A stretch of 64,000 bases of DNA, from NCBI GenBank assembly GCA_016188455.1, contig JACPHR010000010.1, positions 3,655-67,654 of the forward strand, given 5' to 3'. Below the pieces are notes generated by a model that saw nothing but the letters and a program-made list of their open reading frames with translations, had not been told where the DNA came from and did not search any database. Origin of the DNA: Candidatus Tayloriibacteriota bacterium (GTDB lineage: Bacteria; Patescibacteriota; Minisyncoccia; Phycocordibacterales; SIBU01). Position 1 is the first letter of the stretch. Every line of letters begins with the position of its first letter. Shown here in pieces: positions 16,413-43,640 of this stretch. The position numbers and the translations under genes are program-made.

Positions 16413-18683
16413 ATGAAATTATTGATCGTTGAATCGCCGGCGAAGGCGAAAACCATTTCAAAATATCTGGACGGCCTGCCTGCGCCTGCCGGCGCGAAAG
16501 CAGGCGGGCAGGCGGGCCGGTACATCGTCAAGGCTTCCGTCGGCCATGTCCGCGACCTGCCAAAGAGCAATAAAAACGCCATTGACATTGAGGGCGGCTT
16601 TGTGCCCCATTACGAAATTTCCAAAGGCAAGGAAAAGGTGGTCTCTGAGATAGAGGCTTTGGCCAGGAAGGCGGACACCGTGCTCTTGGCCACCGACCCC
16701 GACCGCGAGGGCGAGGCCATTGCTTGGCACTTATCCGAGCTTATAAAGGATAAGCTCGGAGAATCACGAATCAAGAATCACGAATCAAGAAGACCGATAC
16801 AGAGGGTGGTGTACCATGAAATAACGAGGGAGGCCATAAAAGAGGCTTTGGAGCATCCGCGAGACATTGACGAAAACTTGCGGCGCGCTCAGGAGGCGCG
16901 GCGGGTTTTAGACCGTCTCGTCGGCTACGACCTCTCCGGCCTGATTTGGAAAAAAGTGCGCTACGGCTTGTCCGCCGGCCGGGTTCAGTCTCCGGCTCTG
17001 CGCATTTTGGTGGAACGGGAGCGGGAAATTCGCGCCTTTAAGCCGGAAAAATTTTTCGTCATCAGCGCGGAAGTGGAAAGCAAAACCGGCGGTCGGTTCA
17101 TGCTTTTCTGCGTGGCAGAACCGCGCGACAAAGGGCTGGTGGAAAAAATCCTGGCGGCGGGCCGGCGCGAAGATTGGGTCGTTAAAGAGATTGCCGAAAC
17201 CGAAGCCAAGCGAACGCCGAAGGCGCCTTTCATCACCTCCACTCTCCAGCAAACCGCGAGCTCGCGGCTGGGATTCGCCCCCTCGCGCACCATGGGCATC
17301 GCCCAAAAACTTTACGAAGCGGGACTGATTACCTACATGCGCACCGACAGCACCACTTTGTCCGCCCACGCCCTGGCCCAAATCGGCCCGGCCATTCTGA
17401 AAAAATTCGGCGCCGGCCTCCACCAAAACCGGGTCTTCGCCAAAAAAAGCAAGAACGCCCAGGAAGCCCACGAAGCCATCCGCCCGACCAATCTTTCTCT
17501 GGAATCCGCCGGCGCGGGAAACGAGGCCCGCAAGCTCTACCGTTTGATTTGGCAGAGGACAATCGCCAGCCAAATGATTGACGCCAAAATTTTACGAAGC
17601 AAGATTACTGTCAGGGTCGGCACGGGCCCCTCGCCTGCGCTCGGGGCAAGCGAAATTCCGGACTTTGCCGTGGGCGGCTCGCGGTTGCTTTCCCCCGGCT
17701 GGCTCTTGGCCGACCCCGAAGCGCGGGGCGAGGATGTTGAACTGCCGAAAGTTTCCTTGAACGAAAAACTAACGCTCCTTCAACTGAAAACGGAAGAAAA
17801 AGCGACGGAGCCGCCGCCGCGCTACAGCGAAGCGGGTCTGGTCAAAGAGCTTGAGAAGCGCGGCATTGGCAGGCCCTCAACCTACGCCTCCATCCTCAAA
17901 ACCATTGAAGACCGGGGCTACGTGACCAAAGAAAACAAAGCCTTGAAACCGACGGATACCGGCGAAGTGGTCAGCGGCTTTCTGGAAGACAATTTTCCGA
18001 CTTACATTAGCGACAATTTTACCGCGGAGATGGAAGACAAACTTGACGATATCGCCGTAGGAGCGCGTCAGTACGAAAAAACTCTTGAGGAATTTTATAA
18101 ACCCTTCCATAAGGAAGTAAAAGCCAAGGAAAAGGCGGAAAAAGCCACCAACCTTGGAGAAGGCCCGAAAGAATTTTCCTGTCCGGTCTGCGACGGGCCC
18201 ATGATTATAAAACTCGGCAGGAGTGGAAGATTTTTAAGCTGCGCCAAATTCCCCGATTGCTTGGGCGCCCGCGCCATTGACGGCAAGGAACTTGAAGGGC
18301 CGAAAGAAACCGGCGAACTCTGTCCGGAATGTAAAACCGGCAAACTGGTTGAGCGCGACGGCAAGTTTGGCCGCTTTATCGCCTGCTCCAATTATCCGAA
18401 ATGCAAATATGTCAAGAAAGACGAGGCGCTGGAAAAGCAAAACTCAACCGGTGTCCTCTGCCCCGTCTGCAAGGAAGGCTTCATGACCGAGCGCCGCGGC
18501 CGATTCGGCCTTTTTTACAGCTGTTCCAACTATCCCAAATGCAAAAACGCCATCAAAGCCAAACCGACCGGAGCGCTCTGCCGCCTCTGCGGCGCGCTGA
18601 TGATGGAAGGCACGAAAACCATCCCCGAAAGATGCAGTAATAAAACTTGTGCCAACCATAACCCCCACAAACTCGCGAAGTAA
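16413..18683 (+). CDS. topA: DNA topoisomerase I with C-terminal Zn ribbons
   Basis: IVESPAKAKTI, ATDPDREGEAI, SAGRVQS, ITYMRTDS. Confidence 0.98.
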   Translation: MKLLIVESPAKAKTISKYLDGLPAPAGAKAGGQAGRYIVKASVGHVRDLPKSNKNAIDIEGGFVPHYEISKGKEKVVSEIEALARKADTVLLATDPDREGEAIAWHLSELIKDKLGESRIKNHESRRPIQRVVYHEITREAIKEALEHPRDIDENLRRAQEARRVLDRLVGYDLSGLIWKKVRYGLSAGRVQSPALRILVEREREIRAFKPEKFFVISAEVESKTGGRFMLFCVAEPRDKGLVEKILAAGRREDWVVKEIAETEAKRTPKAPFITSTLQQTASSRLGFAPSRTMGIAQKLYEAGLITYMRTDSTTLSAHALAQIGPAILKKFGAGLHQNRVFAKKSKNAQEAHEAIRPTNLSLESAGAGNEARKLYRLIWQRTIASQMIDAKILRSKITVRVGTGPSPALGASEIPDFAVGGSRLLSPGWLLADPEARGEDVELPKVSLNEKLTLLQLKTEEKATEPPPRYSEAGLVKELEKRGIGRPSTYASILKTIEDRGYVTKENKALKPTDTGEVVSGFLEDNFPTYISDNFTAEMEDKLDDIAVGARQYEKTLEEFYKPFHKEVKAKEKAEKATNLGEGPKEFSCPVCDGPMIIKLGRSGRFLSCAKFPDCLGARAIDGKELEGPKETGELCPECKTGKLVERDGKFGRFIACSNYPKCKYVKKDEALEKQNSTGVLCPVCKEGFMTERRGRFGLFYSCSNYPKCKNAIKAKPTGALCRLCGALMMEGTKTIPERCSNKTCANHNPHKLAK

Positions 18684-18817
18684 ATTTGGGAGCACGCAAC
18701 CTGCGTTGCGTGCGCAAGGGGTTTTCGTGAGGCGGAGTCATGTTTCGTCAGCGGACGAAACGGACGAGCCGGGGTCGCGAAAAATCCTGCTCGACGGAGC
18801 AGGGTTTATTTGTGACC
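18684..18817 (+). mobile_element. ~135-bp guide-bearing structured element, topA copy
   Basis: hairpin 18692-18713, GGTTTTCGTG (reverse complement of topA 18611-18620), CGGAG..CGAG, GGGTCGCGA..GACG..TGTGACC. Confidence 0.75.
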
Positions 18818-18887
18818 GAAGACGATTCCCGAACGTTGCTCCAACAAAACATGCGCAATGCACAACCCTCATAAACTCGCGAAGTAA
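18817..18887 (+). pseudogene. displaced duplicate of the topA 3' end (71 bp)
   Basis: encodes KTIPERCSNKTCAMHNPHKLAK* versus topA KTIPERCSNKTCANHNPHKLAK*. Confidence 0.9.
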
Positions 18888-23992: not shown

Positions 23993-24154
23993 GGCGGGAG
24001 CTGGAGGAATCGGTCACAACTCTCGTTCTCCCGTCGGAGAACTCGGTCGCGACCCCGCCTCGTTCTCGCTCGGAACTCGCGAGATACTCCGGCTTCCGCT
24101 TCCTCTCGCGACCCAAGCAGTTGGCTCGCTCAACTCCCCATTCGGCCGCACTCA
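23993..24154 (-). mobile_element. guide-bearing structured element, tRNA-Trp copy, plus 21-bp duplicate of the tRNA 3' end
   Basis: 23993-24013 = 24156-24176; ACTGCT loop, CGGAG, GGGGTCGCGA..GACG..TGTGACC on the minus strand. Confidence 0.75.
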
Positions 24155-28296: not shown

Positions 28297-28442
28297 GAGG
28301 CCACGGTGGGACTTGGTTACAGCTCTCGTCGCGCCGTCGCGCTCCTCGGCCGCGACCCCGCCTCGCTGCCGCTCTGAAACTCGCGGCGTGCTCCGGCTTG
28401 CAATTCCACACGCACGCAAAGCAGTTTGCGTGCTCGTCGCCT
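28297..28442 (-). mobile_element. guide-bearing structured element, tRNA-Cys copy, plus 19-bp duplicate of the tRNA 3' end
   Basis: 28297-28315 = 28445-28463; GCACGCAA-ACTGCT-TTGCGTGC, CGGAG, GGGGTCGCG..GACG..TGTAACC. Confidence 0.75.
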
Positions 28443-36590: not shown

Positions 36591-39314
36591 GTGCCACCTT
36601 TTAACCACTTCACCACCAAAGCCAAGGAGGCCATTCGTAGGGCCCACGAGCTCGCCATTGAACGCGGCCAGAATCACGTCAACCCGGTGCATCTTTTGGC
36701 CGCCCTGGTGCTTCAAGAAGAGTCCATGGTCAACGCCATTTTAGAAAAGCTGGACGTTGACACGGTGCTTCTGACCGATTCAATCTTGGAAACCATTGAA
36801 GGCGACATTGGCTCTTCCACCCTCTCGCCGTCGTACCAGATTTATCTGACGCCCGAGCTCGCCCAGACGTTGGAAAGTTCTTCCAAAGTGGCGACTAGCC
36901 TCAAAGACGAGTTTGTTTCCACCGAACATCTTTTCATCGCCATGCTGGACATCCCCGGCGCGGCGCGCGAACTGCTTTCCCGTTTCCGGATTGACAAGAC
37001 AGATGTCTTGCGGGTTTTGGAAGAACTCAAGAACACCAAAACAACTGACGTGGTTCAGCCGAGACGGCTCCGTTCCATTTCAAAATACACCCGGAGTCTG
37101 ACCGGCCTAGCCCGTGAAAACAAGCTTGACCCGGTCATCGGCCGAGACAATGAAATTTCCCGCATCATCCAAATACTTTCTCGCCGCACCAAGAACAACC
37201 CGATTCTCATCGGCGAGTCGGGCGTCGGCAAGACGGCCATCGCCGAGGGCCTAGCCATTAGGATGGCCTCGGGCGACATACCCGAGTCGCTCAAGGACAA
37301 AGAGCTGGTGTCGCTTGACCTGGGACTTTTGATCGCCGGCACCAAGTACCGCGGCGAGTTTGAAGAACGTTTGAAAAATATCATGAAGGAGATTGAGAAG
37401 TCCGAGGGCCGGATCGTGCTTTTCATTGACGAGATACACACGATTGTCGGCGCCGGCGCGGCCGAGGGTTCAATGGACGCTTCAAACATGCTGAAGCCCG
37501 CCCTGGCCAGAGGCGAACTGCGGGCCATCGGGGCAACAACGCTCAAGGAGTATCAGAAGCATATTGAAAAGGACCCTGCCTTGACCCGGCGCTTTCAGCC
37601 GGTCTATGTTTCCGAGCCGTCGGTGGAAGACGCCATCGCCATTATGCGGGGACTAAAAGAGAAGTACGAGCTCTATCACGGGGTGCACATTACGGACAAC
37701 GCCATTGTGGCCGCCGTCACTCTTTCATCGCGCTACATTACCGACCGATATTTGCCGGACAAGGCGGTTGACCTGATTGACGAGTCGGCTTCCTCTTTGA
37801 AAATTTCGCTTGAAAACATGCCGCCGATTTTGGAAGAAACCCATCGCAAAGTGATGCGACTGGAAATTGAGCGCGAAGCCCTGAAGAAAGAATCGTTGAC
37901 CTCAAGGAAGGCAAAAATGCGAACCAAAAAAATTGAAAAGGAAATCGCCGACCTCAAGGAGAAAACTTCGGAAATAGAACTAAAGTGGAAAAACGAAAAA
38001 GAAACCCTCGTCCAGATAAAAACTGCTAAGAAAGAGCTTGAATCCTTGCGGCTCGAGGCCGAGGCGGCCGAGGCGCGGGCCGATTTGGCCAAAGCGGCGG
38101 AAATCCGCTACGGCAAAATTCCGGCGCTGCAAAAAGAGCTTGACCTCAAAACCAAGCGCTTAAAGAAACTCCAAAGCTCGCGGCGGATTCTCAAGGAAGA
38201 AATCATGGAGGCCGACATTGCCGAAGTGGTCGCCAAGTGGACGGGCATTCCGGTGACCCGAATGCTGGAGGAAGAGGCCGCCAAGCTCTCACGCATGGAG
38301 GAAGAGATTAAAAAAAGAATCATCGGCCAAGACGAAGCGGTGCGAAAAATCGCCGATACCATTAAGCGCTCCAGGGCCGGCATCAGCGACCCGAACCGGC
38401 CCATCGGCTCGTTCATCTTTTTGGGTCCGACCGGCGTGGGTAAAACCGAGCTCACCAAGGCGCTGGCCGAGTTTATGTTTAACGACGACAAAGCGCTCAT
38501 CCGCGTTGACATGTCGGAGTTCATGGAAAGGCACAGCGTGTCCAAACTTATCGGCGCGCCGCCCGGCTATGTCGGCCACGAGGAAGGCGGCAACTTGACG
38601 GAGATGGTGCGCCACCGGCCGTACGCGGTGATTCTCTTTGATGAAATTGAAAAAGCCCATCCGGAAGTGTTTAACATTCTGCTTCAGATTTTTGACAACG
38701 GCCGGCTGACCGACGGCAAGGGTCGCTCGGTGAATTTCCGAAACGCCATCATCATCATGACCTCAAACATCGGAGCGCAATTTATTGACAAGATGGAGCG
38801 CATCGGTTTCGCCACCAGTGAAAACAAGAAGGTTGATTATGAAAGCGCCAAGACGAAAGTGCAGGCGGCGCTCAAAGATTATTTCCGCCCCGAATTTCTC
38901 AATCGTCTGGACGACATTATTGTCTTTGACATTTTGAGCCAGGAGGCGATAAGTAAAATCGTGGAAATTCAGGTTGGCCACGTGCGTGAACGGCTGGCGG
39001 CCAAAAATATCGGTCTGGAAGTGGCGCCAGAGGTTTTGGCGTACTTGGCGAAAGAAGGCTACAACCCACAGTATGGAGCGAGACCGCTGAAACGGATTAT
39101 TCAAAATAAAATTCTGACGCCGGTGGCTTCCCAGATTATCGGGCGGACGGTAGGCGAAGGCAGTACGATTTTAGTCGGTATCAAAGAGGGCGACCAGTTT
39201 GTTTTTGACATCCGGAAGCCAAAATCGGCAAAGCCCATCAAGAGCGACTTACTTGTGGAAAAGTTGCACCCGCCCGAAGAACTGAAAACGTCTTTCAGTC
39301 GGGCGGGAGTTTGA
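36591..39314 (+). CDS. clpB: ATP-dependent chaperone ClpB
   Basis: two AAA+ modules ([16 protein letters not shown]) and long middle domain [11 protein letters not shown]. Confidence 0.95.
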
Positions 39315-39433
39315 ACCTGCCTGAACCCCGCCTGAATGACTTGAAGTCGGACAGGGACTGAGATCGTTCCCCGCCCGGGTGAACATCCATTCGGACGGGG
39401 GTCGGGCGGGAGTTATAAAGTTCAGAAAAGGAA

Positions 39434-39469
39434 AGCTGAATAAAAAGACCATGGTCTTTTTATTCAGCT
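39434..39469. terminator. perfect 36-bp palindrome after clpB
   Basis: AGCTGAATAAAAAGACCA|TGGTCTTTTTATTCAGCT. Confidence 0.55.
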
Positions 39470-39647: not shown

Positions 39648-39783
39648 ATTGAGCGAAGCGAAATTTTCAGTCGGAGCCCCGATGGGTATCGGGGCGTGAG
39701 GGATTCGAAAAGGTTCTCCCCTATCGAGTCCGCGAGATGGGAAACCTGTACTGAAGCGGTACGCTTCGAATCCTGCCCGACGC
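39648..39783 (+). mobile_element. tRNA-Tyr-linked structured mini-element with 19-bp 3'-end duplication
   Basis: 39765-39783 = 39625-39643; internal GGGATTCGAA antisense to the junction. Confidence 0.6.
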
Positions 39784-40197
39784 CCCAAGTTGACACTATT
39801 GTGTCTACTATCCTGACGATCGCCTTGATAGTAGAATACTGGCAAGTGGAAATTGAAAAAAGATGGCTAACATCTTTACCACCTTTACTCTTTCTTATCA
39901 TTGCGGTGCTTCTGCAAAATGCGACTGCTCGGCAAACAGTGCAAATAAGGAAATCAGACTTCAATTTTTTGAGAAAATCTGATAAAGTAACACAAAAGCA
40001 GTGCGCCAGCTAAAGCTGGCACAAATTCCGTTGGCGTTCAAAGCGAGGCCGCGGCGGAAGAGGGGTGTGGTGGAAATTCCGCCACACCTGAGCGAATACA
40101 GAAAGAGATCAGCCCCGGGGCCTGCTCTGTCAGGGGCAGAACACCAAAGAAAATTTTTGTTTTCCTTTATATTACAAAGAATGTTCCGTAAATAAAC

Positions 40198-40270
40198 GCG
40201 CCCATAGCTCAGTTGGTAGAGCAATCGCCTCTTAAGCGAAAGGTCGTTGGTTCGAATCCAACTGGGCGCA
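40198..40270 (+). tRNA. tRNA-Lys(CTT)
   Basis: GCGCCCA/TGGGCGC acceptor, TCGC-CTCTTAA-GCGA, GTTGG-TTCGAAT-CCAAC. Confidence 0.92.
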
Positions 40271-40673
40271 CACGCCAGAAAAATCTTCACTGCTGAAGAT
40301 TTTTCTGGACGTGCGCGGGACGGAGGCATGTTCGGTCAGCAGACCGAACAGCCGAGTCCGGGTCGGGAAATTTTACTCGTGACGACGAGTAAAATATTCC
40401 TGACCACACGCCAGAAAAATCTTCACTGCTGAAGATTTTTCTGGACGTGCGCGAGGCGGAGCCGTGTTTCTGTAGCAACAGAAACAGACGAGCCAGGGTC
40501 GTGAAAATTTTTGAGCGACGGCGAAAAAATTATTTCTGACCACGGCCAGAAAAATCCGCACTGCTGGAGATTTTTCGGGACTTGCGCGGGACGGAGGTAT
40601 GTTTTGTCAGCGGACAAAACAACCGAGTCGGGGTCGCGAGTTCCGAGCCCGATGGGGTGAGGAAACTTGTGAC
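40269..40673 (+). mobile_element. tandem array of three guide-bearing elements (136, 136, 133 bp)
   Basis: units 40269-40404, 40405-40540, 40541-40673, each CAC..ACTGCT..CGGAG..GGGTCG..TGAC. Confidence 0.8.
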
Positions 40674-40776
40674 CACAAGAAAAATAAAACTTAGTAACTT
40701 GTGACTCTAAAATCCAACTAAATTAGAAATTCAAACTTTGAGTCGCGGGTGAATCCAACTGGGCTTTTTGAAAGAC

Positions 40777-40863
40777 GGGCAGGTGGCGAAATTGGTAGCC
40801 GCGCCAGCCTTAGGAGCTGGTCCTAGCAATAGGATGGGAGTTCAAATCTCCCCCTGCCCACCA
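40777..40863 (+). tRNA. tRNA-Leu(TAG)
   Basis: GGGCAGG/CCTGCCC acceptor, CCAGC-CTTAGGA-GCTGG, CCA. Confidence 0.95.
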
Positions 40864-41068: not shown

Positions 41069-42382
41069 ATGATAACTTTAGTACTTTTGACGACTCTTGT
41101 CTTACTGCTGTTTGGCGTTGCCCCGCTTGCTGTGTCGTTTTTGTACTATGCGGCAAAGAAAAAACAACAAGCGAGCTTCGTGCGCGAAGCAACAATGGAA
41201 TTCGTCATGGCTGGCGGTCGGTGCATTAGAATTCTTGAAAACATCAAGGGTTGGTACTATGACCGGCGGGAGTTTGTGGAGAAAAAAGACCCTGCTACCG
41301 GCGTTGTAACACATACGCCGCTTACTTACACCACAAAGGTGGGAAAACTGGCAACCGCGGATATAAGAAACCTTGACGGTACTCTAAAAACAGCGGCTAA
41401 CACATGGTACCTAGACAATGTGCAGGTGCCGGTAAAGGAGGCAGTCCTTCTTGGGAATCCCACCCACAAACCCAGCACATGGTGGAAAAAGGTCAGGCAA
41501 TATTTACGACACAGATGGGGTTTCTTCTGGGTAAGCGCGTTTTACCCCCAAACGCACATCCACAAATTCCAAGTGGTCAAGTCACGGCTACGAAGAAATG
41601 TGGAACACGGCCAAACGCCTATTGAGGAGATGATTGAGGTGGATGCGACCCCGGCCGAGGTGGACAACTTGCTGTGGCGTTTCCCGCGCGCGGTGCTTAT
41701 TGGTGATATTGAGTTTGCCGACAGGTTAACGGCAAGCCTGGTTGCGATGTCAAACTTCCAGGTAGTAATGCCGAACATACCGGTGTTTATCTATAAAGCG
41801 GACTTCTTCCCGCAGATAGAATCGCTGGTGCGCTCAACGGTCATTGATTACTGCAGAAAAGTCAAACTGGCGGACTTTATCACCTCAAGTCCCATCGGCC
41901 CAGTCTTAAGTTTCTTCACTCAAATCATCAGCCAAGTGAATCCAGAGATGATAAGTCAGTACGGCGTGGAAATTCAAAGTTCCTGGATTGTTGAAATTGA
42001 GCTGGGAGACAGCGAGGAACAAAAAGCCCTCAAAGCGAAAGAGCTGGCGGAACTTCAAGGCCAGGCCGGGGTAACGGCGGCGGAACTAGCGGCCAAGGCG
42101 GTGGTAGCCACAGCAGAGGGCGCGGCTAAAGCGACGGTAATTGGGGCAGAAGCTGCGGCTAAAGCCACAACCCTAAAGGGTACAGCCGAGGCGGAAGTGC
42201 TTAAAACTAAAGTGGAAAAAGCAGGGGAGGCTGTAGTCATTGCGGACCTCCACCGGCAACGAGTAACCGGGTTCACGGGCTCGGTACTCAGCGAAGGCGG
42301 CGCTTCGGGAACGGGAGTAATGGTCAGTGTGCCGGCAAAACCTGAAAGACCGGCTCCAACCGCGACTCCGCCTACGCCTTGA
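41069..42382 (+). CDS. SPFH/flotillin-like membrane protein
   Basis: N-terminal TM, YGVEI, AE-rich coiled coil, GAAAGGAAAT RBS; terminator 42400-42428. Confidence 0.65.
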   Translation: MITLVLLTTLVLLLFGVAPLAVSFLYYAAKKKQQASFVREATMEFVMAGGRCIRILENIKGWYYDRREFVEKKDPATGVVTHTPLTYTTKVGKLATADIRNLDGTLKTAANTWYLDNVQVPVKEAVLLGNPTHKPSTWWKKVRQYLRHRWGFFWVSAFYPQTHIHKFQVVKSRLRRNVEHGQTPIEEMIEVDATPAEVDNLLWRFPRAVLIGDIEFADRLTASLVAMSNFQVVMPNIPVFIYKADFFPQIESLVRSTVIDYCRKVKLADFITSSPIGPVLSFFTQIISQVNPEMISQYGVEIQSSWIVEIELGDSEEQKALKAKELAELQGQAGVTAAELAAKAVVATAEGAAKATVIGAEAAAKATTLKGTAEAEVLKTKVEKAGEAVVIADLHRQRVTGFTGSVLSEGGASGTGVMVSVPAKPERPAPTATPPTP

Positions 42383-42635: not shown

Positions 42636-43640
42636 ATGAAAAAAATACTGAAAAGTTTCGGTTCCTGGTGTCGTACAACGGCTTGGCCAAAGACGAAAGC
42701 CTCCATGAAAAGGTTTTACTTCTGGTCAAAGCCTCGCCTGCAAAAGGTTTGGACTAATACCAAATCGGGGGCGAAATGGGCCTTTACTCACAGGACAGAG
42801 AAGAAGGTGTGGCTTTCGGCGGCAATCCTTGCCGGATTCACTCTTCTGACTGTGGGGGCCATTTTTACAATCCGTGGCTTGCAAGCGGTGACGTCGGGCA
42901 ACTGGCAAATCTCGTGGCTAGTTTGGATACTGCTTGCGTTTCTTGGGCTAGTGGTGGTTGTCTTGGAAATCTTTGCGTGGGGGCTTGTTTTGCAAGGTAC
43001 GGCCAAAACAAAAACCGTTCTCAAAGTCCACGCGTGGATTGCGGGAATTGTCGGATTGCCAGCTGTCTTGATTGCCTTCGGGCACTACTTAAAGGCAGCC
43101 GCGGCAATGCCATTAAATTGGTACACGCTACTGGCGGTTGTAGTCTCCTTATGCCTCTTGGGCGTGATTGTCCTCAGGGCGTTCGGACCAAGAACCCCGG
43201 CTACCCAAACTACAAGTAGTTACAGTGGCAGCGGGAAGTCGGGATGGGGTACATTGGTAGCCGCCGTGGTTGTCATGTACGGACTCTGGATGATAGCCAG
43301 CCTCTTTATGCTCGGCAAAGAGCAGGCGGACAGGCGGAACCTCGGCCAGTGGGCGGCGCAAGGGTCTATGGGCCAGGCCGGCGTACCAAGGCACTTTTTC
43401 GTTACGGCTACGCCGGACGCGGAAGTGCCGGTCTACATTGACACCGGCATGACCTGCACCAACCAGTTGGTGCATCCGAACGAAAAAGTTTGGGTGCGCC
43501 GAACCGGAGAGGAACGGTTTCTCTACTGGAAAGGCAAGGCCGTGGCGGTGGCAAACCTTTCCGGACCGCACCAAATCTGGTTTCAATCGGCCGAGACCCA
43601 CCCGGTTTTGGTTGAAGTCAGCATCTACCCCAGACCTTAA
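42636..43640 (+). CDS. hypothetical multi-pass membrane protein
   Basis: about 5 hydrophobic segments plus a C-terminal beta domain; TTGACA-N17-TAACTT at 42532-42560. Confidence 0.7.
   Translation: MKKILKSFGSWCRTTAWPKTKASMKRFYFWSKPRLQKVWTNTKSGAKWAFTHRTEKKVWLSAAILAGFTLLTVGAIFTIRGLQAVTSGNWQISWLVWILLAFLGLVVVVLEIFAWGLVLQGTAKTKTVLKVHAWIAGIVGLPAVLIAFGHYLKAAAAMPLNWYTLLAVVVSLCLLGVIVLRAFGPRTPATQTTSSYSGSGKSGWGTLVAAVVVMYGLWMIASLFMLGKEQADRRNLGQWAAQGSMGQAGVPRHFFVTATPDAEVPVYIDTGMTCTNQLVHPNEKVWVRRTGEERFLYWKGKAVAVANLSGPHQIWFQSAETHPVLVEVSIYPRP

Follow-up and report, generated by a model that had tools for sequence, protein, structure and literature searches.

The window, that is, the whole stretch of 64,000 nucleotides that was analyzed, belongs to a genome of 0.89 Mb in 31 contigs (G000) and includes a tRNA-Lys(CTT) gene that ends at 40271 and is followed by tRNA-Leu, which starts at 40777. 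The spacer between the two genes is occupied by an array of three structured units, beyond which lie the traces of apparently older elements:

40198..40271, + strand: tRNA-Lys(CTT), the target gene; junction CG|CAC between 40268 and 40269
40269..40404, + strand: proximal unit 1 with intact stems; its left arm and hairpin 1 lie at 40275-40308
40310-40317, + strand: unit 1 guide (antisense)
40318-40404, + strand: unit 1 core; hairpin 2 with a tandem G.A loop, hairpin 3 ending in TGAC
40405..40540, + strand: unit 2; guide 40446-40453, core 40454-40540, which is unlike that of unit 1
40541..40673, + strand: distal unit 3, in which hairpin 1 has decayed; guide 40581-40588, core 40589-40673
40674..40676, + strand: 3-nt copy of the target (CAC) at the end of the short-form array
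40689..40719, + strand: probable decayed right end of an older family member, judged by its likeness to intact ends in relatives, then a T-loop-like remnant
40733..40764, + strand: right end of an older long-form element (second core type) and a 14-bp duplicate of the tRNA-Lys T-arm/acceptor strand

The units run from a CAC that begins at 40269, 40405 and 40541 to a TGAC that ends at 40404, 40540 and 40673, as proposed in the initial annotation, and the boundaries are borne out by related elements located behind tRNAs that end in CG|GAC: in 3 of 3 such elements, the base after TGA(C/T) is G and so belongs to the duplicated target. The three units show 71-82% pairwise identity, and each folds into three hairpins (z = -11.4, -5.6 and -3.9 for units 1, 2 and 3, respectively, compared to their own shuffles); the fold energies obtained with DNA parameters go from -50.8 to -37.4 to -27.7 in the same order, that is, the fold decays away from the tRNA. 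The guide CGTGCGCG is found at 40310 (unit 1) and at 40446 (unit 2), and the guide CTTGCGCG at 40581 (unit 3). The annotation had these guides fitting CG|CACACG and a reconstructed original site CG|CACAAG, respectively; both guides are present, and each pairs with the site named for it at 7 of 8 positions, with the same A.C mismatch. The three stem pairs that had been quoted as varying between units yet remaining paired are present as well, but all three belong to hairpin 2 rather than to hairpins 2 and 3. The 14-bp duplicate at 40751-40764 is identical to 40254-40267 (chance of about 2e-6 within 600 nt) and represents the right junction of an older long-form family member, in agreement with the older event that had been suspected. 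A search of the window against Rfam matched the tRNAs and detected neither Theta nor any other RNA.

The layout of the elements on the sense strand is L | T, hairpin 1, antisense, hairpin 2, hairpin 3 ending in TGAC | T, where the antisense spans the final 2 bases of L and the start of T. Long-form elements have their junction before C56 of the T-loop and duplicate about 18-21 nt; short-form elements, the type that makes up the array, have it before N72 and duplicate 3 nt; at topA, the duplication is about 70 nt. The match between guide and target was assessed starting from 71 cores with a tRNA upstream, of which 68 were first in line and 67 were parsed; after four mis-anchored ones were dropped, 63 elements were included in the final set. 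The 2 bases outside the duplication are matched by the guide in all 63 of these (shuffle maximum 36), namely in 43/43 long and 20/20 short elements, against within-form shuffle means of 32.3 and 10.2 and maxima of 39 and 17, respectively; given that the form was assigned by the better guide match and that the genomes are kin, the shuffle test overstates the case and these values are not clean probabilities. The stronger point is the diversity of the matched triplets, which include TTC, TCC, TGC, CGC, CGG, GGC, AGC and GAC. The covariation of guide and target that had been claimed for the array accordingly holds across the whole family. In cases of disagreement between the copies of T, the guide agrees with the upstream one 20 times, with the downstream one 6 times and with neither 2 times.

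In 11 of the 43 long elements, the guide reads GA opposite G57-A58, so that positions 57-58 of the tRNA would form tandem G.A rather than Watson-Crick pairs, a variant that works only on the folded sense strand. In the alignment of the cores, 94.5% of the cells are paired, compared to 36-47% in slid controls, and 24 of the 30 pairs have changed on both sides, which is not the random divergence without compensation expected of units duplicated in place. The mismatches are strongly biased when read on the sense strand (G.A 84 vs C.T 2; G.T 20 vs A.C 5). In hairpin 3, a G stands opposite the end T in 91 of 93 cases, this T having been part of the search pattern, and an unpaired A is present at position -9 in 82 of 93. 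As far as can be judged from the sequences, the mismatches point to the sense strand as the one that folds, whether as RNA or as single-stranded DNA.

The core, sought with a covariance model built from 38 sequences, was found in 36 of 41 related genomes, in 0 to 44 copies per genome. A strict pattern search across the phylum detected it in 9 of 301 genomes, so that this core type is found mainly in one class; two further core types have the identical layout, and the named records that carry the element come mostly from Patescibacteria. Within G000, units like those of the array are located behind tRNA-Lys(TTT) (two units), tRNA-Val (cut short) and tRNA-Arg(TCG) and at the end of topA. An antisense copy of the tRNA end within 140 nt was found for 18 of the 46 tRNA/tmRNA genes of G000 (4 with the reversed-query control), for 26 of 43 genes of G040 (control 0), and for 4/48 and 3/38 genes of two poor near-complete relatives (controls 0 and 3, respectively). 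The other family members in the window are the following:

39648..39783, + strand: long-form member behind tRNA-Tyr, third core type; antisense 39701-39709, 17-nt duplicate 39767-39783
18613..18887, + strand: topA 3'-end member; working gene end 18613-18683, antisense 18720-18729, core 18730-18816, second gene-end copy 18817-18887
23993..24154, - strand: long-form member behind tRNA-Trp, with a 20-nt duplicate at 23993-24012 and an antisense that matches the unusual TCC T-loop
28297..28442, - strand: long-form member behind tRNA-Cys, with a 19-nt duplicate at 28297-28315 and an antisense that matches the TGC T-loop

Altogether, the targets include tRNA genes, tmRNA, the end of topA, the end of rplL (in G040) and an intergenic repeat (in G000), the latter two read by eye. 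Among 120 viral contigs, one held a clear element; loose-pattern matches in viral contigs were rejected as chance, and so was a 13-mer present in 401 genomes, with 0 of 30 loci being real. Cores are also located within duplicated tRNA 5' halves upstream of tRNA genes, or as armless intergenic copies (G040 C7:313622, 600030, 173019). At G040 C7:172901-172974 (L061, L473), a tRNA-Lys-like gene with the anticodon TTA (called tRNA-Stop) is accompanied by a two-unit short-form array. At another locus (L059:892-1638), the short-form element that follows tRNA-Arg is truncated by an HTH protein gene, which terminates within the 5' end of the following tRNA gene; 3 core loci encode homologs of this protein.

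Within one genus, three genomes carry an element at the topA site (G000, G002 and G004), and in three others the site is empty (G001, G003 and G006). The topA guides track the variable third base of a threonine codon along with the 2 pre-junction bases in 7 of 7 elements (two by eye). Of the 23 codons compared between the two topA-end copies in G000, 12 show synonymous differences and 1 another difference, so that one of the copies comes from another working allele. As for the source of the guides, tRNA-Leu(TAG) and tRNA-Leu(GAG) of G040 are followed by an identical trailer with a guide that fits only Leu-TAG, where an apparently inherited guide is seen; tRNA-Arg(TCG) of the same genome is followed, after an 8-nt loop, by a perfect 20-nt inverted copy, and this guide looks freshly copied from the target. 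Given that both inherited and copied guides are seen, the choice of site is not attributed to the guide alone in every case. Each tRNA in the comparison of G040 trailers retains its own 3' end. One core occurs on both long and short left modules in G040, and some copies are spread by recombination.

The units of the array are mosaics of this kind. Units 1 and 2 contain an identical 49-nt left module joined to different cores; unit 1 is 98% identical to the proximal unit behind tRNA-Lys(TTT) on contig C1; hairpin 3 of unit 3 is 91% identical to that of the distal unit behind tRNA-Lys(TTT) and its hairpin 2 is 90% identical to that of the unit behind tRNA-Arg(TCG), with which units 2 and 3 have hairpins in common at 85-90%. 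The cores are 52-83% alike within the array and 85-100% alike to modules at other loci, and the two Lys arrays (CTT and TTT) have the same proximal type and related distal types. The contention that the array did not arise by simple tandem duplication is upheld by these modules, which are closest to units at other loci. The contigs from four public DNA runs of one study cover units 2 and 3 and both flanks of the array; none of them bridges the joint between units 1 and 2, and the exact unit-1 core appears in one of the four runs, where it is joined to the tRNA-Lys(TTT) flank, a result that fits strain polymorphism, assembly slip and filter loss alike, given that such contigs drop variants and lose real branches.

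The proposal that the array records the order of acquisition holds in part. Proximal-first stacking is likely, and the distal short units retain a tRNA-type overhang, CG in five, TG in one and GA in one of those examined by script and likewise in units 2 and 3; a GT overhang that would fit the present neighbor was found in 0/7 distal short units by script and in neither unit 2 nor unit 3. A strict order is overstated because units 1 and 2 carry the same left module on different cores and whole trailers have been swapped between loci. The case for the guide of unit 3 as a record of the original site is weak: it comes down to one base, this is the commonest guide of the family (7/20), and the short-form guides otherwise agree with their own left arm (at 16 positions) and never with the downstream flank (0). 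The initial annotation does not include the family beyond this locus, the targets other than tRNA genes or the link to E. coli tRNA-linked repeats.

The tRNA-linked repeats (TLRs) of E. coli, which include the 178-bp repeats of tyrT/tyrV and RtT RNA (Rfam RF00391), resemble the units described here in being gene-less, structured, located directly behind tRNA genes and organized in arrays; both end in a copy of the 3' end of the gene, and the function of TLRs is unknown as well. In the part of the TLR study considered here (PMC8144298), 22 units at ten loci are described, the last 18-19 bp of which repeat the end of the gene upstream and for which neither function nor origin has been established since 1978, and the RrA, B and F repeats are reported to be transcribed and processed to defined RNAs; an antisense arm or mobility is not mentioned in that part. 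A locus-matched antisense arm, which lies outside the TLR definition given there, is present both in the family and in E. coli units: among 12 K-12 loci examined, exact antisense runs of 8-11 nt were found at tyrV, tyrT, serX and lysQ and shorter or broken ones at proK and the other lys units (by eye), with neither duplicate nor antisense detected at serW and alaX. The GAGAA variant is common to tyrV, tyrT, serX, proK and those long elements of the family in which the guide reads GA opposite G57-A58. In metagenome and viral contigs, the TLR-type pattern was found at 139 loci, of which 77 have a tRNA/tmRNA gene just upstream (19 types); in these 77, the part of the guide outside the pattern matches 3.86 of 6 bases, compared to 2.14 in shuffles (maximum 2.53), and a duplicate is present in 52. 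TLR sequences on plasmids and phages come mostly from chromosome-like records, and in viral contigs they lie outside prophage ends. In the part of a mobilome preprint considered here (10.1101/2024.07.17.603846), the tyrT region shows raised coverage, ascribed to RNA-DNA hybrids rather than to circles. Among the full texts covered by our literature search, no description of these Patescibacteria elements or of the TLR antisense arm was found.

With three units directly 3' of tRNA-Lys(CTT), the array is within the TLR range of 1-5 units per locus behind a tRNA or rRNA gene; the target duplicate of its short units is 3 nt only rather than 18-19 bp, and that of the long-form sisters in the window reaches or approaches the TLR length (17, 19 and 20 nt). 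The RtT core (RF00391) had no match in the window and none above the cut-off in five genomes, and the family core model R1 gave a best E of 1.1 at tyrT, that is, the cores do not cross-match in either direction. The array works like a TLR array but lacks these two published features, duplicate length and RtT core. Besides the unrelated core, the family differs from TLRs in its junction (before C56 or N72 vs 58-59), in the additional targets topA, rplL and intergenic DNA, and in that its array units are mosaics, whereas those of TLR arrays are near-identical copies. The TLR in the E. coli rrfB trailer (L573), although rRNA-linked, is complementary to the tRNA T-loop and not to the 5S end (by eye), as if it might have derived from a tRNA-type unit.

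The search for an enzyme that could move the elements did not identify one. The G000 repertoire includes four RAYT-like Y1 genes, five small GIY-YIG genes, one Xer-like recombinase and three reverse transcriptases, and no IS110 recombinase, which is present in 2 of the 41 genomes. No Y1 gene flanked by element ends was found among the 29 loci of relatives (from the 65 matches listed) or the four loci of G000, where the RAYT-like genes are flanked by other palindromes. Two of 30 GIY-YIG loci contain a core; 12 of the 30 adjoin a tRNA/tmRNA gene, mostly in a different, 5'-end module. The neighbors of the 88 core loci are mostly housekeeping genes, with no integrase or cargo between the tRNA and the duplicate. 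The element load correlates neither with the number of Y1 genes (rho 0.09) nor with that of small GIY-YIG genes (rho 0.13). Comparison of the gene content of two rich and two poor genomes yielded 42 candidates, including small GIY-YIG and four-helix-bundle proteins. A small GIY-YIG gene is present in 32 of 36 element carriers vs 2 of 5 other genomes, with p = 0.028 for one of two families tested, uncorrected, disregarding kinship and based on counts entered by hand; two rich genomes lack such a gene, and the association is a lead only. In other cases (L387, L395, G000 C26:28067-28328), a small GIY-YIG gene immediately precedes a tRNA gene whose 5' end is present as an interrupted duplicate. 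At G000 C8:12650-13500 (L072, L075), a small GIY-YIG gene lies on either side of tRNA-Ser(GCT); one belongs to a module in which the 5' end of this tRNA is duplicated, and the other is located inside a long-form family element. The three reverse transcriptases of G000 (C14:43761-44774, C21:4671-5279 and C30:14098-15123) are related proteins of about 340-360 aa, presumably resembling diversity-generating types.

Several known mobile systems share some of these features. IS608, a member of the IS200/IS605 family, is not known to duplicate the target end. IS200/IS605 elements and the units both form imperfect subterminal hairpins on a single strand, with a guide on the 5' side of a hairpin foot that pairs outside the left end (2 bases, in 63/63 elements here), and both have a self-contained right end; they differ in that no Y1 gene with the same ends was found for the family and in its target duplication of 3 to about 70 nt. 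In IS608, as described in the portion of PMC5934647 used here, a guide at the foot of the end hairpin pairs with bases just outside the element; the family has a 2-base overhang instead of a tetranucleotide, its pairing extends into its own left arm, and no transposase is linked to it. REP/BIME/REPIN sequences with RAYT also form gene-less hairpin units in mosaic arrays that are possibly moved in trans, and CGTC-type REPs lack a dedicated transposase, as far as the part of PMC3733652 considered here goes; neither a GTAG or CGTC tag with a RAYT gene flanked by the same repeat nor a fixed cut dinucleotide was found in the family.

When integrase islands insert into tRNA genes, the gene end is restored by a duplicate, and in integron cassette arrays new units displace older ones. 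The family differs from these systems in consisting of 130-nt units without an integrase, in the internal antisense arm, in the absence of attC core boxes and in a junction identity that starts at C56 or N72, without the 7-bp overlap of integrase islands. In the bridge/seek RNAs of IS110/IS1111, a short stretch inside the element likewise corresponds to the target on both sides of the insertion point; the family has no two-strand guide loops, the DEDD recombinase is absent from G000 and from 39/41 genomes, and instead of a core dinucleotide the target side shows TT, TC, TG, CG, GG, GA, AG and CA and the element end AC. A likeness to group II introns (GTGCG, AC end, bulged A) was rejected given that GTGCG varies with the target and the stem reaches the last base, and a primer-binding site of the retroviral type was ruled out by the topA and rplL targets.

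Taken together, these observations indicate that the array is a real feature and a variant of the tRNA-linked-repeat kind that likely arose by guide-directed insertion. The complete scenario, to which we assign a probability of roughly 0.5, is insertion of the folded sense strand by an enzyme acting in trans, with proximal stacking and later recombination. Under this scenario, a gene-less unit would fold on the sense strand such that its antisense spans the insertion point, and would be inserted where the antisense pairs by a putative nick-and-join enzyme, for which hairpins 2 and 3 may be the binding sites and determine where the two cuts fall; the gene would survive through duplication of the target's 3' end. 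Each new short unit would enter beside the tRNA, because only the tRNA end offers CG|CAC, and push the older units outward, and subsequent recombination between loci would shuffle the modules and blur the order. The folded intermediate could be single-stranded DNA, which is favored by analogy to IS200/IS605 ends, or RNA, and the guide could be inherited, copied from the target, or both, an example of each route being seen. Several findings count against guide-directed insertion: the pairing runs on into the duplicated segment, unlike in IS608; neither an insertion event nor an excision circle or joined-end junction was observed in the assembled contigs of the public runs; no Y1, IS110, RT or GIY-YIG gene could be tied to the elements; and the trailer shared by Leu-GAG and Leu-TAG, as well as the Arg-TCG fold-back, is also expected from gene conversion and template switching. 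More tentatively, TLRs and the Patescibacteria units may form one widespread class of mini-insertions programmed by base pairing, in which the folded core would set the two cut sites, a rewritable guide would choose any matching site, including the ends of protein-coding genes, the gene end would be rebuilt and a putative enzyme would do the joining; the arrays would then be ordered insertion logs.

The elements could also have spread without a dedicated enzyme, with template switching inverting the copies of the tRNA ends and keeping them matched, and with gene conversion and DNA uptake spreading cores and trailers. We consider this somewhat unlikely, even though perfect fold-backs of 17-20 nt behind several G040 tRNAs, a hairpin 1 left arm that equals the final downstream flank (L204), the identical trailers of the two Leu genes, the mosaic modules, serX-type repeats at 1 to 12 places per E. 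coli genome and the negative enzyme search all agree with it, because it leaves unexplained a match that ends exactly 2 bases past the duplication beside a fixed core, the common non-Watson-Crick G.A variant, the strict conservation of the core structure, and guide-matched entry into the unrelated genes topA and rplL. Alternatively, the units might be functional RNAs, that is, co-transcribed trailers processed like RtT/RrB, in which the antisense arm would tune pre-tRNA maturation and the pairing would be under host selection. The sense direction seen at tRNA, tmRNA, topA and rplL targets and the G.A and G.U pairs on the sense strand are in line with such a role, as is the transcription, processing and binding to Hfq and CsrA of the TLRs in E. 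coli rRNA operons, as described in the part of PMC8144298 considered here; the load of 0 to 44 per genome with two near-complete relatives at background (4/48 and 3/38), the patchy presence at topA within a genus, the decay of distal copies and the commonest loops, which are neither GNRA nor UNCG, make it unlikely.

Insertion templated by RNA, whereby a trailer RNA would pair with both target strands through the antisense arm and the 3' duplicate and be reverse-transcribed into a nick, could account for the sense orientation, the variable duplication length and the unit common to the two Leu genes, which starts at the CCA end and stops a few bases into the duplicate, and G000 does encode three reverse transcriptases; given that no homolog of two of these was detected in the richest genome, G040, of which 707 kb (about 88%) were covered, and that no reverse transcriptase is located beside any element at the 88 core loci, we regard this route as very unlikely. 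Least probable is local tandem duplication followed by drift, or misplacement of unit 1 by assembly: the 49 bases identical in units 1 and 2 and the public contig that joins the exact unit-1 core to the tRNA-Lys(TTT) flank suggest it, but the cores are closer to modules at other loci than to each other and their changes are compensatory, and an assembly slip would affect unit 1 alone and leave the family in place.

With an overhang fixed at 2 bases, a short form that duplicates 3 nt, targets in protein genes and sites that are filled in some genomes and empty in others, TLRs become candidates for guide-directed insertion rather than passive repeats, an idea that is testable in a laboratory strain since the antisense arm is also present in E. 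coli K-12. An enzyme, if it exists, would be a new kind of reprogrammable inserter; if there is none, the family shows that hairpin DNA can spread through reduced genomes on host machinery alone. Such trailers follow up to 26 of the 43 tRNA genes of one genome, and their duplicates can mislead the annotation of island scars.

Several other features in the vicinity of the array were noted. Two ORFs behind tRNA-Leu (41069-42382 and 42636-43640) encode membrane-anchored proteins of 437 and 334 aa without a Pfam match. A hairpin-rich repeat (39290-39415) overlaps the stop codon of a ClpB-like gene and is followed by a perfect 36-nt palindrome (39434-39469). The short repeat type at 40010-40140 is also matched by unrelated contigs in the public runs, and that at 39804-39835 recurs behind other tRNA genes of G000.
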